Shown here: piece after piece, positions 9,870-31,868 of the stretch
Numbering within the stretch: the stretch's first letter is position 1
Layout of the letters: each line of letters opens with the position of its first letter
Assembly: GCA_965602825.1 (NCBI GenBank)
Contig: CBFDAZ010000002.1
Location: 1-39,409, forward strand
DNA: 39,409 nt
Reading direction: 5' to 3'
Source: an uncultured bacterium
Lineage (GTDB): Bacteria; Armatimonadota; Zipacnadia; Zipacnadales; VGFC01
Made by a program: the position numbers and the translations under genes
The notes under the pieces: generated by a model
The model's database searches: none
What the model was told of the DNA's origin: nothing
What the model saw: the letters and a program-made list of their open reading frames with translations, nothing else

Positions 9870-11495
9870 ATGACGACCACGGGAGCACTCCTATCCCTCG
9901 TTGTGCTGGTACCTCACGTGCCGTGCACAGCAGAGGAGTCCATCTCCCTGTGGCCGGAGCCACCACCTCCGCCCCTTCAGGTTGAGCTGCGTCTCCCGGA
10001 GGCCGACCCGTTCCCGGATGACGCCCAGCCCACCAGCGCGCTCCAGGAAGCACTCACGCCCGCTCTCCCCGTTGAGGCCCGGCAACCGGCCCCGTTCGCC
10101 GAGCCCGACCGCGGGTGGGTGCTTCATGAGGCGGCAAAGGCAGTGCCGCGGCCGCCGACACTGGCGGAGCAGGGGGGCGCTGACATCGACTACTGCCCAA
10201 GCTTCCTGCCGGAGCTGTACCCGGAGCGCAACCTGGCCCAGCACTGTGGTAACGAGCTTCTCTCCTCACCGTTCCTGGCCCAGGGGGAGGCGGGCCGCAA
10301 CTTCTTCAACGTAGCCTGGGAAGAGGTTGAGAGGATGCACGACAGCGACGAGGAGCTTCTCCTGAAGCTGGCCCTCGCCGGCGTCTACTACTGGCGGCAC
10401 CGCTGCTGTCCCTCGGCGTTGGATGGCGCCTTCCGCGTGTTGTTGTCCGAGAAGCGGACCGGTCTCTCAGCGGCGTTTGTCGATTCAGTCGTACCTCTCC
10501 TACTGGATGCCCTGCCGGCGCAGCTGACCGGCATCCCGCCCGAGATCGAGGATGCTGTAGCGATCGATCTGAGAGTCTCAACCACCAGCACCTACAAGTC
10601 TGTAGTGGACATCGAGAAGCTCCTGAGGGAAGCCGCTGCACGCGACCTGAACGGGATCGCGGTCACCGACCTGGATCATCTCGAGGGTGTGCGAGAGGTG
10701 GAAACGGTCGCGCAGAGGCTGAAGGTTGAGGGCGTGCTCCCGCCGGACTTCCTGGTGATCCCCGGCGAGGAGGTCTACACCCTGTCCGGCCCGCTGCTGG
10801 GCCTCTTCATCGAGGATCGGGTTCAGCGTGGCATGACGATGAAGGCGGCGATCGGCGACATCCACCGTCAGGGAGGTATCGCCATCCTGGCCGATCCCGG
10901 TACCGGCAGCGGGACGAAGCTGGTGCAGACCATGGATGTCGATGGGTACCTCTTGCGCACCCAGCCCGACAGTGCGTTCCGCACGCTGCTTCTGATGGAG
11001 GAACTGGGCCTTGAGGGCAAGCCCCTGTTGACTGCCAGTGGCGCCCGGTCGCACGCCGGCGTGGGCCTGCCCTACTCGGTGGTAGAGACGACCGATGGGT
11101 CGCCGGGAGCGGTACGGCAAGCTCTGAGGGCCGGCTCGGCGTACGGCGCGACCAGCCTGCACCTGCCGATCTTCGCTGCCGTCGTCTTCGCGCCCCTGGT
11201 TCCCTACGAGAAGGCCCTGGCGTCCTGGTTCACGGCAAGGCACACGGTGGAGAGGAAGGTGGCGGAGTGGATGGGCGCAGACAACGTGGAAATCCGTACG
11301 TCCTACGACGACGAACTGTCGGCGCTGTTGGGCCTGGTGCAGGCCCCCACAGCCATCGGCAACCTGATCAACGGCAACTCACCCCTGCAGCGCCTGCCGA
11401 GCCTGACCCGTGTGTCGGCCGACTACTCCTACATACGCATCGAGTACAGGCACGATGAGCGCACGGTGATGGTGATGGGAGCCGTGAGGTGGTGA
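9870..11495 (+). CDS. Secreted protein with a degenerate PHP (polymerase/histidinol-phosphatase-like) domain
   Basis: Signal-like N-terminus. IDLRVSTTSTYKSVVDIEKLLREAAARDLNGIAVTDLDHLEG aligns to the PHP consensus iDLHvHTxxSxDg...GldxiAiTDH, and GGIAILADPG aligns to GGlxxiAHP. The metal-binding His residues are replaced. Confidence 0.5.
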   Translation: MTTTGALLSLVVLVPHVPCTAEESISLWPEPPPPPLQVELRLPEADPFPDDAQPTSALQEALTPALPVEARQPAPFAEPDRGWVLHEAAKAVPRPPTLAEQGGADIDYCPSFLPELYPERNLAQHCGNELLSSPFLAQGEAGRNFFNVAWEEVERMHDSDEELLLKLALAGVYYWRHRCCPSALDGAFRVLLSEKRTGLSAAFVDSVVPLLLDALPAQLTGIPPEIEDAVAIDLRVSTTSTYKSVVDIEKLLREAAARDLNGIAVTDLDHLEGVREVETVAQRLKVEGVLPPDFLVIPGEEVYTLSGPLLGLFIEDRVQRGMTMKAAIGDIHRQGGIAILADPGTGSGTKLVQTMDVDGYLLRTQPDSAFRTLLLMEELGLEGKPLLTASGARSHAGVGLPYSVVETTDGSPGAVRQALRAGSAYGATSLHLPIFAAVVFAPLVPYEKALASWFTARHTVERKVAEWMGADNVEIRTSYDDELSALLGLVQAPTAIGNLINGNSPLQRLPSLTRVSADYSYIRIEYRHDERTVMVMGAVRW

Positions 11496-11498
11496 GCT

Positions 11499-12158
11499 TC
11501 AGCCGGCGGCTCGGAGCTGGGCAATGCCGGCGGCCAGGCCGTCGGGGTGCCCGAAGATGGCTGTCCCGGCCACCAGCACATCCGCCCCGGCGGCAACCAC
11601 CCCGGAGGCTGTCTGGGCGTTGATCCCGCCGTCCACTTCCAGGCGGATCTTGTGCCCCGATGCGTGGATCATCTCGCGTACGGTCCGTAGGCGGTCCACA
11701 GCGGTTTCGATGAAGGACTGCCCACCGAAGCCGGGGTCCACACTCATGATGAGCACGAGGTCCAGCTCGGGCAGCAGAGCATCCAGGACCGATAGAGGTG
11801 TAGCCGGGCAGAGCGCCATGCCGGCTTTGGCTCCGGCGTCCCGGATGCGGCGCAAGGCGCGGTGGGGCGCTCGAGTGGCCTCGTACTGGATCGTGAGGCC
11901 GTTGGCGCCCGCTCCCACGAAGTCGCGGACATAGAAGTCCGGCCTCTCGACCATCAGATGGACATCGTAGAAGAGGTCGGTCTCCGGACGGAGGCCAGCC
12001 ACCACCGGGCTGCCGAAGGTCAGGTTCGGCACGAAGTGGCCGTCCATCACATCGAAGTGCAGCCAGTCGGCCCCCGCTTCGGCCAGGGCACGCGCGTCAC
12101 GAGCGAGATGGCCGAAGTGAGCGGACAGCAGACTCGGCGCTATCAGCGTCGTCGCCAC
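11499..12158 (-). CDS. rpe: Ribulose-phosphate 3-epimerase
   Basis: IAPSLLSAHFGHLARDARALAEAGADWLHFDVMDGHFVPNLTFG and MSVDPGFGGQSFI are classic Rpe motifs. Full length, 219 aa. Confidence 0.9.
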   Translation of the reverse strand: MATTLIAPSLLSAHFGHLARDARALAEAGADWLHFDVMDGHFVPNLTFGSPVVAGLRPETDLFYDVHLMVERPDFYVRDFVGAGANGLTIQYEATRAPHRALRRIRDAGAKAGMALCPATPLSVLDALLPELDLVLIMSVDPGFGGQSFIETAVDRLRTVREMIHASGHKIRLEVDGGINAQTASGVVAAGADVLVAGTAIFGHPDGLAAGIAQLRAAG

Positions 12159-12185
12159 CCCCCGCAGTGTGGCAGAGGCCTTCAG

Positions 12186-12347
12186 TCACCGTTTGCGGTA
12201 GTCTTCACAGACGGTCGCGTTCGGTCGCTCCGGGTGTCGGCACGAGCGCGGATGGTCGTACCTACAGGAGTCGCACAGAAACCTGCCCGGGGCGAACGCG
12301 GCGCGCAGTCGCGCAGTAAGCTTGCGCCACCAGTCAGCGACGCCCAT
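12186..12347 (-). CDS. Small Cys-rich protein (53 aa), possible zinc-binding
   Basis: MGVADWWRKLTARLRAAFAPGRFLCDSCRYDHPRSCRHPERPNATVCEDYRKR has four Cys (CxxC...C...C). ATG 12347 overlaps the sigma-GGDEF stop by 14 nt. The track start at 12410 would overlap far more. Confidence 0.4.
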   Translation of the reverse strand: MGVADWWRKLTARLRAAFAPGRFLCDSCRYDHPRSCRHPERPNATVCEDYRKR

Positions 12348-13881
12348 CGCTCGCCCGTTTCCCTCCCCGGTAGGCAGCCGGACGCCCGGCACTTGGCTTT
12401 CTCTTGTCACGGATCGAGTAGATGCAGTTTCCGCCGGCGGCTTTCGCCATGTGCAGGCTCTCGAGGGCGGTCTCGATCAGTTCATCCTTCGAGTCGCCGT
12501 CGAGCGGGTACGTGGCGATGCCGATACTGACCGAAGGCGTCAGCTTCCCGGTACGGGTCCTTATCTCGAGCTGTGATATGGCCCGCATGAAGCGGTGAGC
12601 TGCTCCGCGTTTGCCGCGTTCGCCCGTGTGAGGCAGCATCATTACGAACGTTCCGCCAGCGTACCTGGAGGCGACGTCCACCTTGCGCAACCGGTTCCGC
12701 AGCAGGTTCCCCAACTCCGCCAACAGCAGATCGCCTTGCGCGAATCCGTGAGTCTCGTTGATCTCCCCCAACCGGTCGACGTCAATTGCCAGCACGGTTA
12801 TCTCGTGACCGTAGCGGGAGGCACGCAGGATCTCCTCCTCGGTCCGTTCACGCAGCGCCTTCGCGGAGAAGAGCTTCGTCAGCGGGTCAATGGGGCTGGT
12901 TGTCTCGCGGAGTGTCGATCGCTCCGCCTGGGCGGCCGTCTTGCTCCGCAGGTGGTTCTCTTTGACCTCCTCGGAAGCGAGGATCTGCCGCAGACGGCTC
13001 AGAGCGTTCCGCAGGATATGGGAGACGTAGTTGCAGGAGATGTTGAGCTGGTTGGCCACTTCGGTTTGAGTCAGCCCGCGGTAGTAGAGCGCATAGACCA
13101 CCCAACGCTCAATCCGTTTCAGCTTCTTGATGGCCTCGCGGAGGACCAGTTTCTCCTCGACCGGCAGGGCGGCGCCCTCGGCCCGCAGGGCCTGGATTCG
13201 CTTGCGATCCAGCGGGACATCATCGCCCTGTCCCGCCCGTGCATCGGGAGAGTCAAGGGAACCGACACGGAAGATGTTGCTCGTGCGGTGGACCTCCTGC
13301 ACCTCGTGCTCCGTGATGCCGACCTCGACAGCGATTTCGCTGACGGTGGGTTGGCGGTTGAGCTCCTGTCGCAGCCCCTCCGTCGCTCGAGCCAGTTTTC
13401 GCCGCCGCTCGTGCAGCCAACCCGGCTGGCGGATGACTGAGGTCCGGTCCCGCAGGTAGTGACGTATCTGGCCGCTGATCTTGTGGGTGGCGTAGGTTGA
13501 GAACTTGATCCCGAGGCTCGGATCGAACGAGTCAACGGCTTTGACAAGGCCGATGTAGGCTTCCTGGGTTACGTCCTCGAAGGGTTCGCCTGAGGCCAGG
13601 AAGTTGCGCGCGACCTTCTCCGCCAGCTTGGCGTGCTGTCGGATGAGCTCTTCCCGAGCTTCCTCGTCCTGGGTCCGAGCGAACTCAGCGAACAGTGCCT
13701 CGACTGATCGGGTTTGCTCGGAGGAGGAGTTGGCAGCGCGTCTTGTGGTCAACGACTTCCCCGCACGCCCGCGGGCGGCGCGAGCTCTGCGCCCCGTACG
13801 GGCTGACGATCCGGCAGCACATCTGTCCCAGCGAGCTTCCACGGCAGCGCCCATGTGTCCTTCCCCCCGTTGATTGGACAC
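12334..13881 (-). CDS. SigB/F/G-type sigma-70 family factor fused to a C-terminal degenerate GGDEF domain
   Basis: Region 2 is EAYIGLVKAVDSFDPSLGIKFSTYATHKISGQIRHYLRD. Region 4 is LTQTEVANQLNISCNYVSHILRNALSRLRQ. Then DPLTKL...VLAIDVDRLGEINETHGFAQGD...RKVDVASRYAGGTFVMMLP...SVSIGIATYP...HMAKAAGGNCI is a GGDEF fold with AGGTF replacing GG(D/E)EF and RxxD retained. Confidence 0.8.
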   Translation of the reverse strand: MSNQRGEGHMGAAVEARWDRCAAGSSARTGRRARAARGRAGKSLTTRRAANSSSEQTRSVEALFAEFARTQDEEAREELIRQHAKLAEKVARNFLASGEPFEDVTQEAYIGLVKAVDSFDPSLGIKFSTYATHKISGQIRHYLRDRTSVIRQPGWLHERRRKLARATEGLRQELNRQPTVSEIAVEVGITEHEVQEVHRTSNIFRVGSLDSPDARAGQGDDVPLDRKRIQALRAEGAALPVEEKLVLREAIKKLKRIERWVVYALYYRGLTQTEVANQLNISCNYVSHILRNALSRLRQILASEEVKENHLRSKTAAQAERSTLRETTSPIDPLTKLFSAKALRERTEEEILRASRYGHEITVLAIDVDRLGEINETHGFAQGDLLLAELGNLLRNRLRKVDVASRYAGGTFVMMLPHTGERGKRGAAHRFMRAISQLEIRTRTGKLTPSVSIGIATYPLDGDSKDELIETALESLHMAKAAGGNCIYSIRDKRKPSAGRPAAYRGGKRASDGRR

Positions 13882-13924: not shown

Positions 13925-15142
13925 TCAGAACTTGCCAGCGCTCGCCTGCCCCACAAGGTCATATATCGGCGAGATGACCGATACAGCGACGAAGCCGACG
14001 AGGAGACCCAGGACCACGATGAGGACCGGCTCAATGATGGATGTCATGGCCTTTATCGCGGCGTCGACTTCGGTCTCGTAGAAGTCGGCGACCTTCAGCA
14101 GCATCTCATCGACCTTACCGGTCTCTTCTCCGACAGCGATCATCTGCACGACCATGTCGGGGAACACTCCGTCGGCGCCAAGCGGAGCCGACAGCCGGTC
14201 GCCCTTCATGACATGGTCCTTGGCCGTGAGAATCGTGCGCTCGATGACTGCATTGCCCGAGGTAGAGGCCACGATCTCCAGCCCGAGCGGCGTCTTGATC
14301 CCGCTCTTCATCAGGGTCGCCAACGTGCGAGCGAACCGCGCGATGGACAGCTTGCGGATCAGGTCGCCGAACAGCGGGGTCTTGAGCTTCAGACTGTCGA
14401 TTTGTATCCGCCCCGCAGGGGTCTTGGCGTAGAGTTTGTAGCCGAACACGGTGCCGAAGATCACCAGAGGCGGTACGTAGAAGTACCGGACTGCATTCGA
14501 GCTCGCATTCAGCAGGAGCTTGGTGGTGATCGGCAGGTCTACACCCAGGTCGGTGAAGATGGTCTTGAACTTGGGAAGGATGAAGAATACCAGGATGGCC
14601 GTCATCAGGAGGGAGAACCCCATGACGATCGACGGGTAGACCATTGCGGACTTGACTTTGGTCCTGGTATCCATGTCCTTTTCCAGGTAGGACGCCAGGC
14701 GGTTGAGGACCTGATCCAGGACACCACCGGTCTCCGCCGCCCTGATCATGCTGACGTAGAGCTTCGAGAAGGCACCGGGGTGCTTGCCCATCGCCTGGCT
14801 CAACGTCTGGCCGGCCTGCACGTCCGCTTGCACGGCAGCGATGATCTTGGCCAGCCGTGCATCGCGAACCTGGCCGCGCAGGATGTCCAGGCACTTCATG
14901 AGGTTCATCCCGGCGTTGATCATCGCTGCGAACTGGCGACTGAACACCGTCAGCTCGCGGAGCTTGACCCGGCCGCCCATGAACCGGCGTCTCCCCGCAT
15001 GCTCGGGTGCGGCCGACAGTTCGGTGACCACCAGCCCCCGCTCGCGCAGCAACTGCTGGGCGGCCTGAGGAGAACCGGCGTCGATCACGCCCTGCGATTG
15101 GCCCCCTTCGGGATCCACAGCCACGTAGCTATAGTTCGGCAC
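13925..15142 (-). CDS. pilC: Type IV pilus platform protein PilC (GspF family)
   Basis: Two GspF repeats with three TM segments. FSRQFAAMINAGMNLMKCLDIL and FARTLATLMKSGIKTPLGLEIV are the characteristic duplicated motifs. Confidence 0.9.
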   Translation of the reverse strand: MPNYSYVAVDPEGGQSQGVIDAGSPQAAQQLLRERGLVVTELSAAPEHAGRRRFMGGRVKLRELTVFSRQFAAMINAGMNLMKCLDILRGQVRDARLAKIIAAVQADVQAGQTLSQAMGKHPGAFSKLYVSMIRAAETGGVLDQVLNRLASYLEKDMDTRTKVKSAMVYPSIVMGFSLLMTAILVFFILPKFKTIFTDLGVDLPITTKLLLNASSNAVRYFYVPPLVIFGTVFGYKLYAKTPAGRIQIDSLKLKTPLFGDLIRKLSIARFARTLATLMKSGIKTPLGLEIVASTSGNAVIERTILTAKDHVMKGDRLSAPLGADGVFPDMVVQMIAVGEETGKVDEMLLKVADFYETEVDAAIKAMTSIIEPVLIVVLGLLVGFVAVSVISPIYDLVGQASAGKF

Positions 15143-15190: not shown

Positions 15191-16363
15191 CTACATGTGC
15201 TCGTATCTGGCCATCAGCAGGCGCTGGAAATTCTCGGGATCGAGCGCGCGTGTGACGGCCTCCTCGTGAGTGATGACGCCTTGGGCCACCAGATCGACGA
15301 GGGCCCCGTCCATTGTCTGCATCCCGTACTGCGTGCTGGTTTCGATGACAGTCGGGATCTGGTGTGTCTTCGCTTCGCGGATGAGGTTGCGGACGGCCGA
15401 GGTCGCCAGCAGCACCTCCAGTGCCGGCACTCGCCCCTTGCCATTGGCCCGGGGCAGGAGTTGCTGAGTGATGATGGCCTCCAGGCAGTTGGCCAGCAGG
15501 ACACGAACCTGCTCCTGCTGGTGGGGCGGGAACACGTCAACGATGCGGTCGATGGTCTGTGGGGCGCTTCGGGTGTGGAGTGTCCCGAACACCAGGTGCC
15601 CCGTCTCGGACACCGTCAGTGCGGCCTCCACCGTCTCCAGGTCTCGCAGCTCGCCCACGAGTACGACGTCAGGGTCCTCTCGCAGGACGCTGCGCAGGGC
15701 GGCCGCGAATGAGAACACATCGCTGCCCAGCTCGCGCTGGTTGATCATCGAGCGGCCGTGGCCATGGATGTACTCAATGGGATCCTCGATGGTCAGGATG
15801 TGGCAGGACCGGTTCTTGTTGATGTGGTCGATCATGCAAGCCAGCGTTGTTGATTTGCCAACGCCGGTCTGTCCCGTGACAAGCACCAGCCCGCTGGTGC
15901 GGCGCGTGATGTCGTGAGTTATCGGCGGCAGGTTGAGCTGCTGCAGCGTTGGCACCTCAGTGGGGATCGCGCGAAGAGCGGCGGCGACGCTGGTCCGCTG
16001 CATGTAGACATTGACCCGGAACCGCCCCAGCCCCCACACGCCATGCGACAGGTCCAGCTCGTGCTCCCTCTCAAATGCCTCAATCTGGCGGTCGGTGAGG
16101 ATGTCGTAGACGAGCCGTTGCGTGTCTATCGGCTCCAGCCGCTCAAAGGGCAGCGTGTGGAGCCGGCCGTCGATCCTCACGACCGGAGGCAGGTTGGTCG
16201 TGAGGTGCAGATCCGACGCGCCGGACTGCACCGTCATCTCGCATAGTTCGTCAAGCGTGATCGAGGAGACGCTGGCCAGTTGTTCCTCTGTTGCCACGGG
16301 TGTCAACTGGCCTTCCGGGGTGCCGCTCGCGCCTTGTACGGGCTGCTCGAAGACTGCGCTCAC
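15191..16363 (-). CDS. pilT: Twitching-motility retraction ATPase PilT
   Basis: Walker A GQTGVGKSTTLA. Asp/His boxes ILTIEDPIEY and LVFGTLHT. PilT-specific AVRNLIREAKTHQI. About 35 aa of N-terminal extension relative to typical PilT. Confidence 0.9.
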   Translation of the reverse strand: MSAVFEQPVQGASGTPEGQLTPVATEEQLASVSSITLDELCEMTVQSGASDLHLTTNLPPVVRIDGRLHTLPFERLEPIDTQRLVYDILTDRQIEAFEREHELDLSHGVWGLGRFRVNVYMQRTSVAAALRAIPTEVPTLQQLNLPPITHDITRRTSGLVLVTGQTGVGKSTTLACMIDHINKNRSCHILTIEDPIEYIHGHGRSMINQRELGSDVFSFAAALRSVLREDPDVVLVGELRDLETVEAALTVSETGHLVFGTLHTRSAPQTIDRIVDVFPPHQQEQVRVLLANCLEAIITQQLLPRANGKGRVPALEVLLATSAVRNLIREAKTHQIPTVIETSTQYGMQTMDGALVDLVAQGVITHEEAVTRALDPENFQRLLMARYEHM

Positions 16364-16375
16364 GTTTCATGACCT

Positions 16376-18097
16376 CTATTCATCTTGGGCTGCAGTCAAA
16401 GCTTCCTCCAGGGTGGTAATCCCCTGCAGGACCTTCGAGATGCCGTCGCCCTTGAGAGTGACCATCCCTTGCTCCTCGATGGCATACTGCCGAAGCACGT
16501 GGCTTGGGGCTCCCTTGAGGGCCAGGTCGCGGACCTCATCGTCAACGACAAGCAGTTCGTAGATGCCGACGCGCCCGTGGTACCCCTCATCGCACTGACT
16601 GCACCCCTCGCCCCTGAAGAACTGCACCGGCTCCCCCTCCTCGGGCTCAACGCCCGCGACCTCGAGCGCCTCCGAGGGCGGTGTGTACGGTACCTTGCAG
16701 TGGACGCAGATCTTGCGCACCAGGCGTTGGGCGAGTATGCCGGCGAGCGAGGAGGCCACCAGATAGGGCTCAACGCCTATCTCCACCAGGCGGGCCACGG
16801 CCCCTGCAGCGTCATTGGTGTGGAGGGTGCTGAGGACCAAGTGGCCTGTGAGGGCCGCCTCGGTGGCAATGATGGCGGTCTCCTTGTCTCGAATCTCACC
16901 GACCAGTATGATGTCGGGGTCCTGTCGCAGCATCTCGCGGAGGATGCTGGCGAACGTCATGCCCGCCTTCTGGTTCACCGCGCATTGGGTAATGCCGGGG
17001 AGCTCGTACTCGACTGGGTCCTCCGCGGTGATGACGTTCTTGTCGGTTGTGGCGATGCGGTTGAGAGCAGCATACAGCGTGGTGGACTTCCCGCTTCCTG
17101 TCGGCCCGGTTGCCAGGACGATGCCATAGGGACGCAGGATGACGTTCTCGAAGGCCTCCTGGGTCTGAGAGCTGAAGCCGAGCTTGCTCAGGTCTGCCAT
17201 GATCGAGCCTTTGTCGAGAACACGCATGACGACTTTCTCGCCGAACTGGGAGGGCAATGTGGATACCCGGAAGTCAAAGGCCCGATCGTTGAACCGCATC
17301 GCGATCCGTCCGCCTTGGGGTGCCAGCTTCTGGTCGATACTCATGCCGGACATGACCTTGATCCGGCTGACCGCCGGAAGCTGAGCGCCCTTCGGTACGG
17401 TCATGGCATCGCGCAACACGCCATCGACCCGGTATCGGACGCGGACCGACTTCTCCTCGGGCTGGATGTGTATGTCACTCGCCCGCTGCCGGACGGCCCT
17501 GGTGATGATCATGCGCACCAGCTTCACCACTGGCGGGTCGGCAGACGCCGCCTCCGTGTCATCGAGGTCGAATTCCTCATCTTCGTCCTCTTCCTCCAGG
17601 TCGTCCGCGTCCGGCTCGTCGAACTGGTCGAGGAGGCCATCCAACTCCTGTGCCACCCGCACCCTGACATTGCCGAGACCGGCGACCGCAGTCGCGATGT
17701 CTTCCGGCAGGGCAATGCAGGGCTCGATCCGGTACTTGTACTCCGTGCGCAAGCGTATCTGGTCGATGGCGCGGATGTCGTTGGGGTCGGCCATCGCCAC
17801 CTGCAGGGTGCCATCCTGACGAGAGATGGGGATGCAGTTGTGCTTGCGCATTATCGACTCGGGGACAAGCTTGGCTGCGTCCTGGTCGATCTGAAGCTCC
17901 GTCAGATCGACGAAGGGCACATCCCACTGCAGGCCGCGGCAGATTGCCGCGTCCCGCTCGGTGATGTAGCCCATGTTGACCAGGACCTGGCCGATGAACT
18001 CGTCGGTCTCCTTGGCGACTCGTAGAGCATCGTCGAGTTGCTCTTGGGTGAGCGACGTGTTATCTACGAGTATCTGCCCGATCAACCTCTCGTCCAA
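16376..18097 (-). CDS. pilB: Type IV pilus assembly ATPase PilB (GspE family)
   Basis: N-terminal T2SSE_N-type helical repeats. Walker A GPTGSGKSTTLYA. ITAEDPVEY and LVLSTLHTN boxes. Tetracysteine CVHC...CSQC motif. Confidence 0.9.
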   Translation of the reverse strand: MDERLIGQILVDNTSLTQEQLDDALRVAKETDEFIGQVLVNMGYITERDAAICRGLQWDVPFVDLTELQIDQDAAKLVPESIMRKHNCIPISRQDGTLQVAMADPNDIRAIDQIRLRTEYKYRIEPCIALPEDIATAVAGLGNVRVRVAQELDGLLDQFDEPDADDLEEEDEDEEFDLDDTEAASADPPVVKLVRMIITRAVRQRASDIHIQPEEKSVRVRYRVDGVLRDAMTVPKGAQLPAVSRIKVMSGMSIDQKLAPQGGRIAMRFNDRAFDFRVSTLPSQFGEKVVMRVLDKGSIMADLSKLGFSSQTQEAFENVILRPYGIVLATGPTGSGKSTTLYAALNRIATTDKNVITAEDPVEYELPGITQCAVNQKAGMTFASILREMLRQDPDIILVGEIRDKETAIIATEAALTGHLVLSTLHTNDAAGAVARLVEIGVEPYLVASSLAGILAQRLVRKICVHCKVPYTPPSEALEVAGVEPEEGEPVQFFRGEGCSQCDEGYHGRVGIYELLVVDDEVRDLALKGAPSHVLRQYAIEEQGMVTLKGDGISKVLQGITTLEEALTAAQDE

Positions 18098-18119: not shown

Positions 18120-18147
18120 GGGCGGCGGACCTAGCGGCCCGCCGCCC
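18120..18147 (-). other. Intercistronic 9-bp GC hairpin between pilQ and pilB
   Basis: GGGCGGCGG-N10-CCGCCGCCC is a perfect 9-bp stem in the 86-nt pilQ-pilB gap. No U-tract follows on the transcribed strand. Confidence 0.5.
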
Positions 18148-18183: not shown

Positions 18184-21048
18184 CTACCCCTCCCCCACCG
18201 CTGGCGCTTCCGCACTTACGGGCGCGGCCCCGGGCCGCAACAACTTGACTTCGGCGAACACGACAACCTCTGATTTCCTCCGCTGTGTCTGTCGTTTCTT
18301 GAACAGCTCGCCGAACAGCGGGATGTCTTTCAGGAAGGGAATCCCGCTGAGCGTCTTGACCTCCTCATCCCGCAGCAGCCCACCAATGGCGATGACATCG
18401 CCGTCGGAGACCCGCACAATCGTCTCGGCCTCCCGAGTCACTACGACCGGGTAGCCTTGCGGCGAGTAACCCGAGAACGACCTCACGTGGGGCGCCAGGA
18501 ACAGCGTGATCTGGTCGCTGGAGTCCACATTCGGGCCGAACTTCAGGCCGAGGCCGATCTCCTGGAACTCCACGCTGCTCTTGATCGTGCCGTCTCCCGC
18601 CACTGCGATCTCGTACGGTACGATCTCGCCGACGAGGAAGCTCGCGCTCTTGCCGTTGACGGCTACGAGTTTCGTGCGCGACAGAATGGTTGCATTGCTG
18701 CCCGTTACCATGGCCTCGAACGACGCCGTGAAACTGCCTGAGCCCCCCGAGTTGAGCGCCGCGCGGCTGATCTTGCCGAACTTGAACCCATCGCCCGCTG
18801 TCATCTCCTCGGATACGATCAGGCCGGGAAGGTCCCATTCGAAGCCAACTTTCTGGTCTTTATCTATGCCGACGTCGGTGATGGTTGCCGTGATCTCGAC
18901 CTGCGGCGGCGGGACATCGATCTGTGCCAGCAGCTCCTCGACCGCAGCCACAGCGCTCTCGGGTCCGCGCACGATGATCTGGGCGGATGGACGGATCCCT
19001 CCCACTTTCTCGCTGCCTTGGATGTCCCGCAGCTCGGTTGGGGGAGTGGCCAGGTAGGCCTCAGCCTGGCCCGCGAACATGCTGGTGACCAGCTCGGTGA
19101 AGGCCTCGGGGTCCACATAGGTGACTCGCAGCGACCGAGTGACGACATCCCCGACTGCTTCGGGTGCAATCGTGGGCTCAACGTCAATGCTAGCGAGGAC
19201 TTGCTCGGCTTTGTCAACGTCCACGGACTTGCCGGAGAGACCGACGACAGCGACCTGCGGGGCCGCGGGGCCTGGGACCTGGACCTCAACATTAGGAGTC
19301 AGTCCCTCAAGCGCTGACGCCGCCTGTGCGGCGGTCAGGTGCTCTAGCTGTATCCATCGTGTCGTGTCGATCGGTGGGACGTCAACCTGAGCAGCCCGGT
19401 CCCGCAGCCACTCGCCGCTTCTCTCGTCAGGTAGATTCATGAATACCACAGACTGCGCGTCCTCAACTATCTTAAGTGTAACGCCGATCTGCTCGACGAC
19501 CTCGCGGAGTTCCTCCGCAATGCGGTATGGTGTGGTGTTCTCCGGCTTGTAGATCAGCTCGATCGGCAGAGCCGCCACCGCGCCTCCCACTCGCGCGATC
19601 TCCTCGGCCGTCCCGACGATGTAGTTGCGCTCGCCCACCAGCGTGTACTCAAGGCTGTTCAGCGCCGCAACCAGGTCGAGGGCCTCGACCAGCGTCACCC
19701 GTGTGAGGTGGACGGACATGTTACCCTGGACCGAAGGGGTGGTGATGATGTTCCGGTCGGCGTACTTGGCAAGCGCGGTGAGGATCTCCACCACCGGTGC
19801 ATTCTGGAAGTCCACATTGATCAGGAGATTGTCGGCGTCCGGAGCCGGGCTGGTGGCTGCGCCCGCCTCGGCCCCGGCCGGGGCGGGCCGCTGGGCGACG
19901 AGAGTGCCCTCCAGAGGTCGAGCAAGCTCGCAGACCACGGTCCGAGGTGAGGCCCCCGGCTTCGGCGAGCAGAGGTCGCCGTCGGTTGCCGGGATGGTCA
20001 CCTGAGCTCCGACGGTCCCCTGACTGACCGTGACGGCGCCAGGCTGCGCCGGATGCAGAGCCACGGCCTGGAGGCAGTCGCGGCCGATGGCCGCGCCCGG
20101 GAACGTCAGGACGTAGCGCCGCGGCGACTCTAGCTCCTCCAGCCGGTACCGCAGCGGCCGCGAGCAGTCGATTGCCACGCGCAGCGGGTCCAGTCCGACG
20201 ACCCGGACCTGTTGCAGCTCGGCAGCGTCTGCTTCCGGAGGCGGGGGCTGGACGGCTGGGGCTCCGCCGAGCGCGCCCACTTCGCCCCCGGGCACGGTGC
20301 CGCCGTCGGTTTCACGGACCACGAACGTAGCCGGCGATTGCCGGCCCCCGCTCGGCACCGAAGACCGGGGCGAATGCCGCTCAGTGGGAGGGGCTGCCGC
20401 CATGCGCGACGGCAAGTCGCGCTGAGGAGGGCCTTCGGCGGGACGCGCCAGGGCAGCCAGGCCGAGCTCAGGGCCCGACCGGGTGACCATCCCACTGATC
20501 GGGGCGATCAGAGGCGGTGGCAGCGTGGCACTGGCGAGGCGTATCGCGGCTACCCGCGCGTCACTCATCAGACTCGGGGCCGGTCGAGCGGTCCGTGGGC
20601 CGCCGTTTGGCGGCTCCTCCAGTTGAAGCTTGACGAGCAACCCCCTGGAGTCAGCGAAGCGCTGAGCGGTCGGGGCGCCGCCTGCCAGAGAGACCACCTC
20701 GAGCCGAACCACCGGGGGCTTCGAGCTGGCCTGTCTGATCGTCACCGCATCCCGGAGTGGGGGAATCCGCTGGATGGCGCCGGCCGCGTTCGGGGCCAGA
20801 ACCGCGTCCAGGAAGTCCGCCACCAACCGCGCTCGGCCGGCAGCCTGCTCCAGCCGTACCTGGGTCGGTTGGCTTGTCGCCACATGGATGACAGCGCAAC
20901 CGGTTTCGCGCGCGATACCAGCAGACTCAATCGCTACGCTCGCAGGGGTGGCTGAGGCAGCCGGCGAGGCCGTACTCAGAGCGAGAATCGGGAGCGTGGC
21001 GGCTGTACATAGCAGCGTCAGCAGTCGCGAGGTATGCCGGCTCTGCAT
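18184..21048 (-). CDS. pilQ: Type IV pilus secretin PilQ with N-terminal AMIN-like domains
   Basis: Signal peptide. Two AMIN-like beta-domains separated by Pro/Ala linkers. STN/N0-like block LINVDFQNAPVVEILTALAKY. C-terminal secretin core ending GIPFLKDIPLFGELFKKRQTQRRKSEVVVF. Confidence 0.85.
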   Translation of the reverse strand: MQSRHTSRLLTLLCTAATLPILALSTASPAASATPASVAIESAGIARETGCAVIHVATSQPTQVRLEQAAGRARLVADFLDAVLAPNAAGAIQRIPPLRDAVTIRQASSKPPVVRLEVVSLAGGAPTAQRFADSRGLLVKLQLEEPPNGGPRTARPAPSLMSDARVAAIRLASATLPPPLIAPISGMVTRSGPELGLAALARPAEGPPQRDLPSRMAAAPPTERHSPRSSVPSGGRQSPATFVVRETDGGTVPGGEVGALGGAPAVQPPPPEADAAELQQVRVVGLDPLRVAIDCSRPLRYRLEELESPRRYVLTFPGAAIGRDCLQAVALHPAQPGAVTVSQGTVGAQVTIPATDGDLCSPKPGASPRTVVCELARPLEGTLVAQRPAPAGAEAGAATSPAPDADNLLINVDFQNAPVVEILTALAKYADRNIITTPSVQGNMSVHLTRVTLVEALDLVAALNSLEYTLVGERNYIVGTAEEIARVGGAVAALPIELIYKPENTTPYRIAEELREVVEQIGVTLKIVEDAQSVVFMNLPDERSGEWLRDRAAQVDVPPIDTTRWIQLEHLTAAQAASALEGLTPNVEVQVPGPAAPQVAVVGLSGKSVDVDKAEQVLASIDVEPTIAPEAVGDVVTRSLRVTYVDPEAFTELVTSMFAGQAEAYLATPPTELRDIQGSEKVGGIRPSAQIIVRGPESAVAAVEELLAQIDVPPPQVEITATITDVGIDKDQKVGFEWDLPGLIVSEEMTAGDGFKFGKISRAALNSGGSGSFTASFEAMVTGSNATILSRTKLVAVNGKSASFLVGEIVPYEIAVAGDGTIKSSVEFQEIGLGLKFGPNVDSSDQITLFLAPHVRSFSGYSPQGYPVVVTREAETIVRVSDGDVIAIGGLLRDEEVKTLSGIPFLKDIPLFGELFKKRQTQRRKSEVVVFAEVKLLRPGAAPVSAEAPAVGEG

Positions 21049-21069
21049 CGTTGATTCCTCCCACAGTGC

Positions 21070-21131
21070 ATCGTTGCTTTGTCAATACGGCGGCTGTCGG
21101 TTTGTGCTGCGATCGTTGCTGTATCGTTGCT
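21070..21131 (-). repeat. Three direct copies of the 9-mer ATCGTTGCT (AGCAACGAT on the coding strand) in the pilP-pilQ gap
   Basis: Exact copies at 21070-21078, 21112-21120 and 21123-21131. A 7-nt partial copy at 21047-21053 overlaps the pilQ start codon. The local sequence is AT-richer. Confidence 0.6.
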
Positions 21132-21168
21132 ATCTTCCGGCGAACTGGCTGTTCTGCCGCGAGTTGCC

Positions 21169-22122
21169 CTATTCGGTTGGTGGCGATATCCCGGTTGAGT
21201 CCTCAACGACCGGGGCGATCGGTCCCGTCGCCGCGGGCTCCGGCTCGGCAGTTGTCGAGTCAGGCTTCGGGCCCGGTGTCGGGAGCGACAGCTCGTGCTT
21301 CCGGCCCTGGCCCGTGATGGTCAGTTTTCCGGGAGTGATCGTCTCCACCTCGGCCCCGCCCTGGCCGCCGACCTTCTGCCCTGGGCGGACGTACCTGCCG
21401 GGCGCACCGGAGAGATCGGCTGGGCGGACGACCGCCAGAGACCCCTGCGGGCCGCTAATGGTGCCCACAAGCGCGACCGACGGCGCCCGGGAGGCCCGGC
21501 CGCCCCGCCTGACCATCGGGTAGTTGGCCGCCAGAGCCGCTGGGAGACCTGGTTCCCTCGGCTGGCTCACGACCATTCCAGGCGGGAGCGCGGCCGCTCC
21601 GCCAGTCACCGGGCTTGGGAAGGTCGGCGTAGCAGTGGGCAGCGGGATCGGCGGCGGTAGCGAGTCCGGAGTGGACGGCCGCGGTGGCACGGCCGATGGT
21701 TCCGCGGGGCCCGGTCGAGCGCCCGGCCCCGGCGCTGCTGTGGCAAGGTCCGCCAGGGGGTCTCGGCCGGGCGGCGAGACGGAGTCCAGATCCGGCGCTT
21801 CCCTCGGGACACCTGCGGGAGCTGGCTTCGGCGTGCCCGTATCGGCGGGCTTCGCCGGCGTACCTTTGGGAGGCTTCTTGGGATCGTCCTTCTTCTTCTG
21901 AACCACCTTCTTCGCTTTGGGTGGACCCCCAATCCACCCCATTTGTGTGCTGAGCCGTATGCCCGTGAACACCAGCAGCGGGATCCCGATGATGAGAAGC
22001 ACGATCTGCGCCTTCTTCGGGATGAGGTCCTTCGATTTCTTCTGTTTTGGGGTATCCATCGCCGCATTCTCCCCTGAGCCTTTGCCCGCCTGGCTCATCA
22101 AGGCCAAGCCGGGGGGCCGCAT
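21169..22122 (-). CDS. pilP: PilP-like pilus assembly protein with a long Pro-rich linker
   Basis: Located between pilO and pilQ. One TM (IVLLIIGIPLLVF), about 170 aa of Pro/Ala-rich linker, and a C-terminal beta-domain ALVGTISGPQGSLAVVRPADLSGAPGRYVRPGQKVGGQGGAEVETITPGKLTITGQG resembling PilP. The start is uncertain (22122 or ATG 22059). Confidence 0.5.
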   Translation of the reverse strand: MRPPGLALMSQAGKGSGENAAMDTPKQKKSKDLIPKKAQIVLLIIGIPLLVFTGIRLSTQMGWIGGPPKAKKVVQKKKDDPKKPPKGTPAKPADTGTPKPAPAGVPREAPDLDSVSPPGRDPLADLATAAPGPGARPGPAEPSAVPPRPSTPDSLPPPIPLPTATPTFPSPVTGGAAALPPGMVVSQPREPGLPAALAANYPMVRRGGRASRAPSVALVGTISGPQGSLAVVRPADLSGAPGRYVRPGQKVGGQGGAEVETITPGKLTITGQGRKHELSLPTPGPKPDSTTAEPEPAATGPIAPVVEDSTGISPPTE

Positions 22123-22170
22123 CGAGTTTCTCCGCCGGGCGGCCCGAAGGGCTCGAGTGACGCATTCGTG

Positions 22171-22857
22171 CTAGTGGATCTTGATACTCAGGTCGCCCGG
22201 GAAGCCGCCCTGCGGGGCCAGGATGTAGGCTTTCGCCTGCAGCCTGACCTTCGCGGCCGCTCTGCCATCCGGACGCAGTTCCCTGGCACCGGCCTTCTCG
22301 ATCTCAACACTCTCGACTGCGATTACCTTGCCGATCGATCCGAGCTGCTTCAGGAAGTCGAACGCACCCCGGTAGGTGCCGTCGAAGCGCAGCTCAACGT
22401 CCATTTCGTCATAGCGTTGCCCCTGAGCCGTCTCCGTCGCCGCGTTCTTCTCGCCTTCCTTGCCGCCTTCGTCGGCGGCGACGGCCGCCTCGATCAGTGC
22501 CACCTTCCCCTTGACTATCTCCCCCTGCCGCAGCTCGATGAGGTCATTCCCCGTCATGGCGGCGATGTTCTCTATCTGGCGGATCAGTGTAGGCACGTAC
22601 TCCGCTTCAGGGAGAGACCGCTCGATCTCGTTCAGCTCAGCAGCTAGCTTTCCATTCTCCTCCTGAAGCGTGTCAAAGTCAACCCCCTCGATTGCGCGGC
22701 GCAGCTCTGATAGCTCTTCAGCAGCCGCGTTCCGTTCGGCGTAGAGGCTGTAGCTCTGTTTCGCGTGCACCATCACCGCAATGCTCAGGAATACGATGCA
22801 GACCAGGGCGGCTCCGCCGAAAACCAAGAACCGTCTGTTCCTCAGTGCAGCCATCAT
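22171..22857 (-). CDS. pilO: PilO-like pilus assembly protein
   Basis: N-terminal TM, then a coiled coil (AERNAAAEELSELRRAIE...LAAELNEIERSL), then a C-terminal alpha/beta domain. ATGA overlap with pilN. Confidence 0.7.
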   Translation of the reverse strand: MMAALRNRRFLVFGGAALVCIVFLSIAVMVHAKQSYSLYAERNAAAEELSELRRAIEGVDFDTLQEENGKLAAELNEIERSLPEAEYVPTLIRQIENIAAMTGNDLIELRQGEIVKGKVALIEAAVAADEGGKEGEKNAATETAQGQRYDEMDVELRFDGTYRGAFDFLKQLGSIGKVIAVESVEIEKAGARELRPDGRAAAKVRLQAKAYILAPQGGFPGDLSIKIH

Positions 22858-23495
22858 GTGGAGGCTCCCCCCGTGGCCAGAAGTGCCTGGATCTCGAACT
22901 GGTACGTCTCGGTGACTGGGCCGCCGCCGCGCTTGCGCGTATACTGCAGGTAGACGTCCCCGAAGGACGTCGTGGCCTCAAGGTTCTGGATGAACTGGCC
23001 GACGAGACTTCCCGTCGCGGCTTGCCCGGTGAGGGTGAAGCCCTCCCGTGCTGCCGCGGCTGCCGTCTTGGCTCCTACCTGCTTGACCCTGGGGCGCAAG
23101 GTCTTCGACGAGCGAACAACCGTCAGCGTGACCTGCTCGGGAAGGGCCTGGGTCATGTGACTGAGAGCCGCGCACCACTTGGCCTCGCTGTCCCGAGCCG
23201 ACCGCAGCAAATCGATGAGCGGGCGTTTGCTGTCCAACTGCCTCTGTACGACATCGATCCGGGCCTTCTCGTCCTGGAGCTGCCCGATCTCGCCCCGGAT
23301 GGCGTCGAGACGGTCGCGCGTGGCGCGCAGCCGGCTCTGCTGCCAGCTCGCGACGACCATTGCCCCCACGAAGGCCGCCACCGCGACGAAGAAGGCGACA
23401 CGGCCGACAGTCTCGCCCCGTTTCCGCTGGTTTTCGCGTTCACTGATGAGGTTGATATTGATCAACGAACCACACCCCCTGGGCAGCTCGGTCAC
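22854..23495 (-). CDS. pilN: PilN (fimbrial assembly) protein
   Basis: LININLISERENQRKR N-terminal motif, followed by a TM and a coiled coil. Located directly after pilM. Confidence 0.75.
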   Translation of the reverse strand: MTELPRGCGSLININLISERENQRKRGETVGRVAFFVAVAAFVGAMVVASWQQSRLRATRDRLDAIRGEIGQLQDEKARIDVVQRQLDSKRPLIDLLRSARDSEAKWCAALSHMTQALPEQVTLTVVRSSKTLRPRVKQVGAKTAAAAAREGFTLTGQAATGSLVGQFIQNLEATTSFGDVYLQYTRKRGGGPVTETYQFEIQALLATGGAST

Positions 23496-23502
23496 GGCGG
23501 TT

Positions 23503-24681
23503 CTATCCAGACGCGGCAGCGACCGGCAATGGGTGCGCCTCCGGCTGGCTGGCGAGCGGGTAGGCCCGCGATTCCATTGGCTCCCGCAACGCGAGGCCGG
23601 CGGCCACCGTGAGATAAGGGGACAAATCCGTCAAGAACCCCTGATCGTACGAGGGCGCCTCCAGCCCTGTGTCTCGAAAGACGTCGGTGATGACGACCTC
23701 GGTCCCGAGCCTCATCTGAAGGTATTGTTCCAGCCGCGGGAGCCGGCAGACGCCACCGCTGACGACCACCCTATCGGCCCCCGCCAGGGCACCGCCGGAC
23801 TGGAAGGTGTTTGCCAGGAAGTTGAGTGAGGTCTGGGTGTCCCTGACGATCTCCTCCAACACCGGCGCGATTGCCTGGCTAACCTGCTGTTGCTCTTCGG
23901 GCAGGGACTCGATCTCCTCCGGCGCGCAGGCTACCGCTCGCGACTCCTTTATCCTCCTGGCCTCCTCCGGGTCCACCGAGAAGGTCGAGACGATCGCCTG
24001 ATCCATACTGAGTCCAGCTATGGGGACGATCCGCGGGAAGGCGAAACACCCCTTCCATACGATGGTCATCTCAGTGAAGGACGCTCCGATGTGCAGCAAC
24101 AGAAGCGTTTGGTCGAAGATGGCGGGATCGGTGTTGGCGTAGACCTGCGCCCTGAGCACGGCGAACTGCACTGTGTCCATCACTGACGGCGTGAGTCCCG
24201 CGATCTCCAGGGCCTGAACGCGCCCCTCCATCGCCTCATGCCGGGCCGCCACCAGCAGCACGTTCATCTGCGGGTCCTGGCTGTCGGGATCCAGTATCTG
24301 CCACGCGATCTCGCCCTCCTCGACGCCGAACGGGATATGCGGGCGTGCCTCGTAAGGCATCGCCTTCGCCAGCGTCTTGGCGTCCCGTCTGGGCATCTGC
24401 AGGCGTGTGGCGACCAGCGACGGATCGCTGACAGCACAGGCGGCCAGCTTGGCGCGGCTGCCCGTGGACCGCAGTAGCTCCCGGATCACGTCGCCCACTA
24501 TGATGGGGTCCACGACCACGCCATTCAGTACGGCGCCGGGCGGGGTCGGCGCCATGCCCACTCGCGTAGCGACAGCTTTCCCGCCTTCGACCTCGCACTC
24601 GACGAGCTTGATCGAAGTGCCGCCGATATCGATGGCAACGCTGGCGGGTTGCCCGAAGATCATGTCCAGGATCTTTGCCAT
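23503..24681 (-). CDS. pilM: PilM, actin-like ATPase of the T4P alignment complex
   Basis: VAIDIGGTSIKLVE phosphate-1 motif. LLHIGASFTEM and VVSGGVCRLPRL match the PilM/FtsA-like fold. Confidence 0.85.
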   Translation of the reverse strand: MAKILDMIFGQPASVAIDIGGTSIKLVECEVEGGKAVATRVGMAPTPPGAVLNGVVVDPIIVGDVIRELLRSTGSRAKLAACAVSDPSLVATRLQMPRRDAKTLAKAMPYEARPHIPFGVEEGEIAWQILDPDSQDPQMNVLLVAARHEAMEGRVQALEIAGLTPSVMDTVQFAVLRAQVYANTDPAIFDQTLLLLHIGASFTEMTIVWKGCFAFPRIVPIAGLSMDQAIVSTFSVDPEEARRIKESRAVACAPEEIESLPEEQQQVSQAIAPVLEEIVRDTQTSLNFLANTFQSGGALAGADRVVVSGGVCRLPRLEQYLQMRLGTEVVITDVFRDTGLEAPSYDQGFLTDLSPYLTVAAGLALREPMESRAYPLASQPEAHPLPVAAASG

Positions 24682-25244: not shown

Positions 25245-25940
25245 CTACGGATGAGCGCCCGATGCAGTCCGTAGGTACTCAATGATCGCCCGGATGTCGT
25301 CCGGACTGGGCAGTGCATCCGCCTCGACGGCGTCACGGGAGGGCACTCCCATGTCTGCCGACGATTCGCCGTCGCTGTGTGCCGACAGCGGACTGGCCTC
25401 GCTCTGAGCGGTGGCGAGCTCCACGACACCGAGCTCGACCAGGTGCCCGAGGGCGGCGTATGCATCCTCCCAGTCCAGCCCGCTGCCCGCAGCGATCTCG
25501 CCCAAGGTGTGCCTGCCGTCAACGAGATCGAGCACGACCCTATCCGTCTGGGTCAGTTCGGCCGGGTCAGCCTTCGCGGCGTCGATCAAGTATGGCCTGG
25601 CAGTCGGTTGCCCGAGTAGCTTTTTGGCGTACGCCAGACCATCCAGGCGGCGCGCGGCGGACAGCAGGATCGATTGCACATCGTGCTCGATCGTCCGCTC
25701 GGGGGGCACCTCCTGGGCCTGGAAGTTGAATGACCCCGCGCGACGGGCGAGCAGACCGAACACCGCATCCTCGCCACGGTGGACCCCGTCAAAGGCGTCG
25801 ATGATCCTTCCCTTCTCGAGAACCAGTTCCGTCGTGTGCCCACTGTCGAGCACCCGCAGGATCCCGGTCTTCCCGCCCATGGCCAGGATCTGGAGTACAT
25901 CCTCAGGATCGGTTTCGCTTAGACTCCCACGAAGTGCCAA
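25245..25940 (-). CDS. DUF4388 / PATAN-domain protein
   Basis: LRGSLSETDPEDVLQILAMGGKTGILRVLDSGHTTELVLEKGRIIDAFDGVHRGEDAVFGLLARRAGSFNFQ matches the DUF4388 pattern (GxL....dllQ.l....tG.L.v......f..G.i..A.....G..A......w..G.F.F). TTG 25940 lies 7 nt after GAGGGA and 10 nt after the upstream stop. Confidence 0.6.
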   Translation of the reverse strand: MALRGSLSETDPEDVLQILAMGGKTGILRVLDSGHTTELVLEKGRIIDAFDGVHRGEDAVFGLLARRAGSFNFQAQEVPPERTIEHDVQSILLSAARRLDGLAYAKKLLGQPTARPYLIDAAKADPAELTQTDRVVLDLVDGRHTLGEIAAGSGLDWEDAYAALGHLVELGVVELATAQSEASPLSAHSDGESSADMGVPSRDAVEADALPSPDDIRAIIEYLRTASGAHP

Positions 25941-25950
25941 GGCAAATCCC

Positions 25951-26484: not shown

Positions 26485-26530
26485 GCCCGCTCACCTCCAC
26501 GGAGCCCGAACGCGGCCCGCGAGTTCGTAT

Positions 26531-27121: not shown

Positions 27122-27149
27122 GGTACTTGGTTCCTCCGCTGTCCTGCTC

Positions 27150-31844: not shown

Positions 31845-31868
31845 TGGCTGGCTAGCGCCGATCCTGGT

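Follow-up and report, generated by a model that had tools for sequence, protein, structure and literature searches.

The stretch of DNA analysed here, 39,409 nt of contig CBFDAZ010000002.1 from an uncultured bacterium of the Armatimonadota (hereafter the window), carries a co-directional block of pilus genes in the order pilM, pilN, pilO, a Pro-rich open reading frame (ORF), pilQ, pilB, pilT and pilC, whose last member encodes a sigma factor joined to a C-terminal GGDEF domain (sigma-GGDEF, Table 1). The first-pass annotation, made from the letters alone, had described this gene as a full sigma factor, with regions 2, 3 and 4, ahead of a GGDEF fold. The four Pfam domains, found in this order with strong E-values, bear out that description, and the strings that it quoted (DPLTKLFSA, EINE, RKVD, and RYAGGTF) are all found at the checked coordinates. 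Its placement of the gene as the first one after pilC also holds, since pilC, which has the same orientation, is the adjacent upstream gene and ends ~43 nt away. An internal ATG nine codons past the GTG start gives the database form of 506 amino acids (aa; P0001), which is otherwise the same protein, and sequences resembling a Shine-Dalgarno (SD) motif precede both starts. The N-terminal extension is missing from most relatives, which are mostly 440-480 aa long. The GC content at third codon positions (GC3) is 0.77 for the sigma-GGDEF gene, typical for genes of the window.

The same architecture recurs well beyond the window. A comparison of domain architectures, which the first-pass annotation had suggested, finds the sigma regions plus GGDEF in all of the best 120 database homologues (35-85% identity, typically 440-520 aa), and all 188 unique relatives that we compared carry the fusion. 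The named sources are Armatimonadota, including Ca. Zipacnadales at 65% identity, with one sequence labelled Chloroherpetonaceae. A metagenome scan, seeded by a 70-sequence alignment and the region 4.2 pattern SCNYVSH[IL], confirmed at least 574 relatives, and the 80 loci that were kept all span both domains. The 70-sequence alignment contains 44 invariant columns, spread across region 2, region 4.2, and the GGDEF domain, and in 175 of 178 sequences the invariant residues H288 and D332 stand 40-45 residues apart. A frameshift or an assembly artefact joining two separate genes, the outcome that the first-pass annotation had named as fatal to its reading, is ruled out, since well over 100 independent contigs carry the same fusion. 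We give practically no weight to this explanation, or to that of a decaying pseudogene, as the uninterrupted architecture is found in many samples at 35-85% identity, the invariant columns fall in both halves, and the linker length is conserved. Judged from these alignments, the fusion is real and both halves of the protein are under purifying selection.

Among the NCBIfam models, the best match of the sigma half is SigB/F/G (TIGR02980, aa 73-300), with a score of 178.8 bits that lies under the cutoff of 234.35. The SigF models match the N-terminal half at ~1e-40, the equivalog models for SigF, SigB, SigG, and FliA all score under their cutoffs, and the model for the WhiG/FliA group of sigma-28 type (TIGR02479) reaches 113.7 bits where 189.6 would be required, a weaker match than that to SigB/F/G. 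The nearest solved sigma factor by sequence is sigma-F of the SpoIIAB complex (1l0o, 2.7e-29), which outranks a sigma-B-type chain, SigA, WhiG (6pfj, 4.5e-19), and FliA. By these matches, the sigma moiety is a divergent group-3 (sigma-F/B-like) sigma factor that falls outside any named subfamily. In 70 relatives with 34-85% identity, many residues are invariant in region 2 (D103, Q106, E107, G111, L112, F127, T129, Y130, H133, G137, I139, H141, L143, R144, and D145) as well as in region 4.2 (S282, N284, Y285, V286, S287, and H288), indicating that the core-binding and promoter-recognition residues of the sigma half are under purifying selection. No gene for a SpoIIAB/RsbW-type anti-sigma kinase or a STAS protein occurs among the Pfam-annotated neighbours in the window and in the loci of three relatives (L001, L002, and L012), which fits regulation built into the protein itself.

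To number the GGDEF half, the PleD sequence was taken from the PDB and added to the family alignment, which gives RAID at 359 and GGEEF at 368. In the AGGTF motif, E370 is replaced by G410 and E371 by T411; K332 is replaced by a Gly (G372), and the position of R446 is a gap. The window protein keeps D367 (D327 in PleD), N375 (N335), D384 (D344), and K480 (K442). We take D327, K332, N335, E370/E371, K442, and R446 to be metal-binding, catalytic, guanine-binding, phosphate-binding, or P-loop residues, with K332, K442, and R446 presumably being those of the phosphate-binding/P-loop type. The first-pass annotation had called the active site (A-site) degenerate, which is correct as regards the loss of E370/E371, but the site is less eroded than it implied, given the four residues that are kept. 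Similarly, the change of NR after DPLTxL to SA is confirmed, whereas the substrate-binding role that had been assigned to this position can be confirmed only for D344, which contacts the guanine of GTP in PleD (PMC7288161) and is kept as D384.

In an alignment of 121 sequences reaching down to 35% identity, the commonest residue at the positions of D327, K332, and N335 occurs in 52, 38, and 38 sequences, that at the positions of E370, E371, and K442 in 32, 56, and 36, and R446 corresponds mostly to a gap. The residues of the window type are found in 38/121 (N375), 52/121 (D367), and 36/121 (K480) sequences. Part of the D-x-D...ND segment is even deleted in one clade, and GG(D/E)EF occurs in 0 of the 188 unique sequences. 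We therefore conclude that catalysis has been given up across the family while the pocket for cyclic di-GMP (c-di-GMP) has been held fixed. A GGDEF domain that is still a weak diguanylate cyclase, so that the sigma factor would also make c-di-GMP locally, would be in line with the intact fold and with the presence of D367, N375, and D384 in the window protein, but the replacement of E370/E371 by Gly and Thr, the missing R446 equivalent, the change of K332 to Gly, and the lack of GG(D/E)EF in every family member make this highly improbable.

The inhibitory site (I-site) behaves differently from these catalytic positions. RKVD stands in I-site register, as had been claimed: aligned to the deposited PleD sequence it matches R359-D362, with AGGTF matching G368-F372, and it also aligns with the RKSD I-site of DgcR (R206/D209). 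In the 121-sequence alignment, R399, D402, and R353 are each present in 121 sequences and R430 in 120, in a domain where just 18 of ~159 positions reach at least 90% conservation, and RxxD is found in 187 of the 188 unique sequences, the lone exception being a mis-called ORF. In active enzymes, the allosteric site is formed by RxxD and R390 of one domain and R313 of an adjacent domain, and it binds (c-di-GMP)2, which cross-links two GGDEF domains (PMC7288161). The RxxD motif is not needed for the fold, because the AxxA variant of DgcR loses product inhibition but is still folded and active (PMC8041772); the AKSA I-site mutant is deposited as 6zxb (PMC8041772). The PDB sequence matches of the GGDEF part, which include 6d9m (5e-28) and PleD (1e-15), show that R346, E350, R353, and R356 on helix alpha-1 are shared with ordinary cyclases. 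R353 is therefore less diagnostic, as an Arg is also common there in ordinary GGDEF domains, and, by these comparisons, RxxD and R430 are the sole really diagnostic I-site residues. A family-specific alpha-1 surface made of R346, E349/E350, R353, and R356 was considered and dropped for the same reason.

The first-pass annotation had proposed that this sigma factor may sense c-di-GMP in cis. That proposal is strengthened by an I-site that is invariant while the catalytic positions vary, with GG(D/E)EF found nowhere in the family, and binding of c-di-GMP by the GGDEF domain in the manner of PelD, PopA, and SgmT is fairly well supported by the conserved residues. Two other uses of the domain have to be weighed against it. 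The dead GGDEF domain could work independently of nucleotides, as a module that mediates protein-protein interaction, dimerisation, or localisation and might dock the sigma factor on the pilus machinery, on a polarity hub, or on a partner cyclase or phosphodiesterase, with the conserved Arg and Asp residues serving an interface or the fold. Degenerate GGDEF domains can indeed acquire other roles (PMC7288161), polarity-type genes (MglA-like GTPase, Roadblock, TPR) adjoin the cluster, no cyclase genes were found in the loci, and several alpha-1 residues conserved here belong to GGDEF domains in general. Nevertheless, the residues that do not change even among distant relatives are precisely those of the c-di-GMP I-site, the fold does not depend on RxxD, as the folded and active AxxA variant of DgcR shows (PMC8041772), and no alternative conserved surface was identified, so that we regard such a module as unlikely. 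The second possibility is that a different nucleotide is sensed, either GTP at the remnant active site or (p)ppGpp. The equivalents of D327, N335, D344, and K442 are kept in the window protein and its close clade, a GTP-sensing degenerate GGDEF domain is known from C. crescentus PdeA/CC3396 (PMC7288161), and structures of PleD with ppGpp and pppGpp are present in the PDB (9g85 and 9g86). Yet the A-site is unconserved across the family, as the counts given above indicate, and one clade is deleted across the D-x-D...ND segment, whereas the I-site is invariant everywhere; sensing of another nucleotide thus appears improbable.

The AlphaFold2 model, computed with the family alignment, has a mean predicted local distance difference test score (pLDDT) of 82, with single domains above 90. 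Its GGDEF part matches solved GGDEF domains with template modelling (TM) scores of 0.90-0.93 and root-mean-square deviations of 1.5-2.2 Å (Foldseek), and no PDB chain joining a sigma factor and a GGDEF domain was found in the structure search. In the model, one helix (residues 283-325) extends region 4.2 towards the GGDEF domain, with the pLDDT dropping from 84 to 63 along the linker. A rigid coiled-coil linker as a universal feature of the family is unsupported, given this drop and a distal half that is rich in Pro and Gly in the clade of the window protein.

Table 1 Features of the sigma-GGDEF gene and of the pilus gene cluster in the window (residue numbers refer to the 515-aa form).
Feature	Position	Strand	Basis or remark
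sigma-GGDEF gene, 515 aa, GTG start	12334..13881	minus	stop codon 12334-12336
N-terminal extension, Arg-rich, poorly conserved, predicted disordered	13738..13881, aa 1-48	minus	pLDDT <50
Sigma70_r2 (PF04542), core binding and -10 recognition	13441..13647, aa 79-147	minus	Pfam 4.5e-18
Sigma70_r3 (PF04539)	13240..13410, aa 158-214	minus	Pfam 2.3e-13
Sigma70_r4 (PF04545)	12985..13134, aa 250-299	minus	Pfam 1.5e-11
Region 4.2 helix ISCNYVSH, family signature	13018-13041	minus	inside Sigma70_r4
Linker, predicted continuation of the 4.2 helix into the GGDEF domain	12892..12984, aa 300-330	minus	AlphaFold2
Degenerate GGDEF domain (PF00990)	12427..12891, aa 331-485	minus	Pfam 9.7e-31
DPLTKLFSA	12862-12888	minus	string verified
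R353, equivalent to PleD R313, secondary I-site Arg	12823..12825	minus	121/121 conserved
EINE	12754-12765	minus	string verified
RKVD, primary I-site motif (R399, D402), equivalent to PleD R359/D362	12676..12687	minus	alignment
AGGTF within RYAGGTF, replaces GG(D/E)EF	12646..12660	minus	alignment
R430, equivalent to PleD R390, third primary I-site residue	12592..12594	minus	120/121 conserved
Weak terminator-like hairpin, 37-49 nt past the sigma stop codon	12285..12297	minus	consensus scan only
pilC, T2SSF platform protein	13925..15142	minus	Pfam T2SSF 1.5e-59
pilT, retraction ATPase	15191..16363	minus	Pfam T2SSE 2e-42; synteny
pilB, extension ATPase, MshEN-family N-terminal domain	16376..18097	minus	Pfam T2SSE 2.4e-128, MshEN 1.1e-22
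GC-rich 13-bp hairpin between pilQ and pilB	18120..18147	minus	minimum free energy -39.4 kcal/mol, z = -2.8
pilM-pilN-pilO-(Pro-rich ORF)-pilQ, upstream half of the pilus cluster	18184..24681	minus	PilM_2 3.6e-47, PilN 7e-08, PilO 2.5e-08, Secretin 7.5e-37

A consensus scan found no terminator-like site between pilC and the sigma gene, and the short gaps between the two genes fit co-transcription. They are probably co-transcribed, with the weak hairpin past the sigma stop codon as a possible operon end. A separate promoter between pilC and the sigma gene is unsupported, the enriched k-mers in this region being SD sequences and the coding sequence for a conserved N-terminal 'RKLTEEEIQERL..YA' stretch. 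The full pilMNO-Q-BTC-sigma order is also present in relatives at 66% (L001), 48% (L012/L013), and 38% identity (L002). More generally, pilC is the next gene upstream, in the same orientation, in 53 of the 82 evaluable loci, and pilB, pilT, and pilC are all present in 30 of the 46 loci whose upstream flank extends to 4.5 kb or more, both counts taking in a few near-duplicate loci. In a neighbour-joining tree, pil-linked members occur in several deep clades and nearly all of the unlinked ones in one derived clade; the linkage therefore looks ancestral. Taken together, the comparisons of sequence and gene order indicate that sigma-GGDEF is a genuine single gene, probably the last of a pilB-pilT-pilC operon, with a catalytically dead GGDEF domain.

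A tight sub-clade without pil linkage (L059, L060, L062, L065, L073, L077, L079, L087, and L091) has the motif RKADIPARIDVSDL, with the signature shrunk to IDVSD(L/M), and its tblastn similarity to the query stops near residue 424. This sub-clade may be a functionally diverged paralogue.

One deep clade (L045/L047, L056, L067, L068, L071, L072, and L080) has a gene for a PilA-like prepilin directly downstream of sigma-GGDEF, followed by a second pilin-like gene. At ~60-80 nt past the sigma stop, these loci show a terminator-like hairpin, a dyad, the SD sequence AAGGGAGGTG, and the prepilin (…KGFTLIEMLIVIVVIAILALIVIPR…), and their sigma-GGDEF proteins combine the motif RSIDLVARLxGxRF with a deletion in the D-x-D...ND segment. 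The dyad, CATCTCA-N15-TGTGGAATAA, is strictly conserved between the sigma stop and pilA in this clade. It resembles group-3 promoters and is a candidate cognate promoter for the pilin-linked clade only. As a family-wide promoter it was rejected, with perfect copies in 8 loci of that one clade and, elsewhere, matches no more frequent than shuffling would give (18 versus ~11 per shuffle).

A -10 motif of the sigma-28/WhiG type, GCCGATAA, was likewise rejected as a family-wide feature of the pilQ-pilB spacer, as it was found in 4 of 26 loci versus 1.3 expected, all in one distant sub-clade. In these four loci (L002, L052, L036, and L040), (G/A)CCGATA(A/G/T) occurs on the sense strand of the spacer and matches the sigma-28/WhiG -10 consensus, and it may mark FliA-type control of pilBTC there. 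The motif is absent from the pilQ-pilB spacer of the window, and its matches elsewhere in the window are mostly intragenic and show no enrichment near the pil genes.

The same spacer contains, ~25 nt ahead of the pilB start, a hairpin without a clear U-tract (Table 1). A hairpin at this position is also found in L001, L015, L017, L013, L043, L047, L058, L067, L068, L072, and others, so that many loci share its placement but not its sequence. It might serve to attenuate transcription or to stabilise the RNA, setting pilMNOQ apart from pilBTC-sigma. PilB itself begins with an MshEN domain, a type known to bind c-di-GMP in MshE. Its RLGxx motifs look imperfect by eye (RLIGQILV... and FIGQVLV...), which makes binding uncertain; if PilB does bind c-di-GMP, the pilus cluster would have two c-di-GMP inputs.

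Several other features of the neighbourhood were observed. PilQ (18184-21048, minus strand) is a long protein of 954 aa that contains AMIN, N0/STN, and Secretin domains and is rich in Pro in its N-terminal half, and the ORF in the PilP position (21169-22122, minus strand) encodes 317 aa rich in Pro, Ala, and Lys, with no Pfam match. Upstream of pilM, on the minus strand (25245-32780), lies a polarity-type cluster that resembles an MglA/MglB-type module beside pilus genes. It comprises a protein with DUF4388 (25245-26045), two Roadblock/LC7 proteins (25951-26484 and 27150-27593), a small GTPase of the Ras/Arf type (26531-27334), two large ORFs without a Pfam match (27590-28582 and 28572-31844, the latter of 1090 aa), and a protein combining TPR and Roadblock domains (31869-32780). 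As called, the ORF of the GTPase overlaps that of the second Roadblock/LC7 protein, so their starts need revision. On the other side, sigma-GGDEF is followed by rpe in the window, L001, and L012, and an ArsA-ROK-rpe neighbourhood is common to the window and L001. In the 1.2-Mb contig of L002 (38% identity; 11473-13272), and also in L003, a GAF-PAS histidine kinase follows sigma-GGDEF, and then a TPR/zinc-ribbon protein. Three further ORFs of the window (437, 485, and 541 aa; 3365-6136 and 9870-11495, plus strand) match no Pfam family and show a GC3 like that of genes.

On balance, we lean towards the reading that sigma-GGDEF is a sigma-F/B-like sigma factor for pilus genes that would be set in cis by c-di-GMP bound to its receptor-type GGDEF domain. 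Its parts have precedents: PopA, SgmT, and PelD are c-di-GMP receptors with GGDEF domains (PMC10519070), cyanobacterial SigF drives pilA as almost its only stringent target (PMC6495340), and the c-di-GMP-RsiG-WhiG switch controls pil operons in Rubrobacter (PMC8325347). We propose that intercalated dimeric c-di-GMP would bind at RxxD (R399/D402) and R430, and that the sigma moiety would direct the transcription of pilus genes, most likely those of pilins. As R353, the equivalent of PleD R313, is also invariant, we further propose, as the most speculative step, that (c-di-GMP)2 could cross-link two GGDEF domains through RxxD/R430 and R353. Such a cross-link would hold two sigma-4 domains together via their linkers and could sequester the sigma factor from core RNA polymerase, resulting in inhibition at high c-di-GMP, parallel to RsiG-WhiG. 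The sign might also be the opposite, with c-di-GMP relieving an autoinhibition.

Several observations weigh against this reading. With D367, N375, D384, and K480 retained in the window protein, the former active site might conceivably still contact a nucleotide. The equivalents of RxxD, R390, and R313 are common in active cyclases, and their conservation could partly be inherited structure. Concerning the targets, about one third of the family members, mostly in one derived clade, have no pil linkage, a prepilin motif scan of the window found no pilin gene, and the window contains no copy of the dyad. Concerning the cross-linking step, the predicted template modelling score (pTM) of the AlphaFold2 model is 0.43, so that the inter-domain geometry is not confident, and the Pro/Gly-rich distal linker in the clade of the window protein weakens a model of rigid coiled-coil cross-linking. 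Finally, no canonical diguanylate cyclase turned up when ~1 Mb of family loci was searched by tblastn for further GGDEF genes, and an Rfam scan of the window and six loci found no c-di-GMP riboswitch and no other RNA family; the production of c-di-GMP by the hosts is therefore assumed. We found no literature on c-di-GMP in Armatimonadota.

Sigma factors are usually regulated externally, whether through anti-sigma factors, through proteolysis, or at the level of their synthesis. A sigma factor that senses a small molecule through a domain of its own would thus represent a new regulatory principle. More tentatively than the reading above, sigma-GGDEF might represent the first case of a sigma factor acting as its own second-messenger receptor, in which c-di-GMP at the fused I-site would switch the sigma moiety on or off, maybe by dimerisation, and couple pilin and pilus transcription to the messenger without an anti-sigma factor. 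A testable prediction is that RxxD-dependent binding of c-di-GMP alters the transcription of pilin genes. If this holds, it would offer an initial look at how c-di-GMP signals and how pili are regulated in Armatimonadota, of which few members have been cultured. Annotation pipelines label these proteins as sigma-70 or sigma-B factors, overlooking the sensor half.

The GGDEF half of the protein has the domain type of PleD, WspR, and DgcR together with their four-residue allosteric site, and the (c-di-GMP)2 cross-linking model is borrowed from them. These proteins are, however, enzymes in which the I-site shuts off catalysis, whereas sigma-GGDEF has no catalysis to inhibit, so its I-site must have another output. 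With PelD, PopA, and SgmT it has in common a GGDEF fold, an inactive signature, an intact RxxD motif five residues upstream, and an R390-type Arg. The outputs of these receptors are different (a regulator of the Pel synthase, a proteolysis adaptor, and a histidine kinase, respectively), and in none of the three is the domain joined to a sigma factor or a comparable module that binds DNA or RNA polymerase. Moreover, c-di-GMP binding has been measured for these three proteins, whereas for sigma-GGDEF it is predicted from sequence.

With respect to the sigma half, sporulation sigma-F and stress sigma-B provide the closest solved structure (1l0o) and the best NCBIfam family (TIGR02980). They differ in being controlled by partner switching with SpoIIAB or RsbW, while the window protein scores under the family cutoff, has no kinase or STAS gene nearby, and carries a C-terminal sensor domain instead. 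Cyanobacterial SigF of Synechocystis and Nostoc punctiforme is also of the SigB/F/G type and has a very small regulon centred on pilA (PMC6495340). Nevertheless, it is a stand-alone protein without a GGDEF domain and is not encoded after pilBTC, so that its resemblance to sigma-GGDEF is one of type. As the first-pass annotation had supposed, no description of a sigma-GGDEF fusion was found in our literature search. The components and the regulatory logic are known, and it is the covalent in-cis architecture and its spread in a pilus-linked family, with Armatimonadota as the named sources, that appear uncharacterised.

The closest functional analogue is the RsiG-(c-di-GMP)2-WhiG system of Streptomyces and Rubrobacter radiotolerans, in which a group-3 sigma factor is under c-di-GMP control, with pil operons as targets in Rubrobacter, and which was called in 2021 by its authors the sole known sigma/anti-sigma pair targeted by c-di-GMP (PMC8325347). 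The proposed logic is alike, a second messenger gating a sigma factor for pilus genes. The difference lies in how the messenger is held: in RsiG-WhiG, c-di-GMP is bound in trans by a separate coiled-coil anti-sigma factor through E(X)3S(X)2R(X)3Q(X)3D motifs, which have no match in the six frames of the window or in the sigma-GGDEF protein, whereas the presumed receptor here is a GGDEF I-site fused covalently to the sigma factor. The sigma moiety is also nearer to sigma-F/B than to WhiG/FliA, and the phylum is different. If the proposed mechanism is right, the sigma-GGDEF family would represent an independent, in-cis answer to a task that Actinobacteria solve in trans by RsiG-WhiG.

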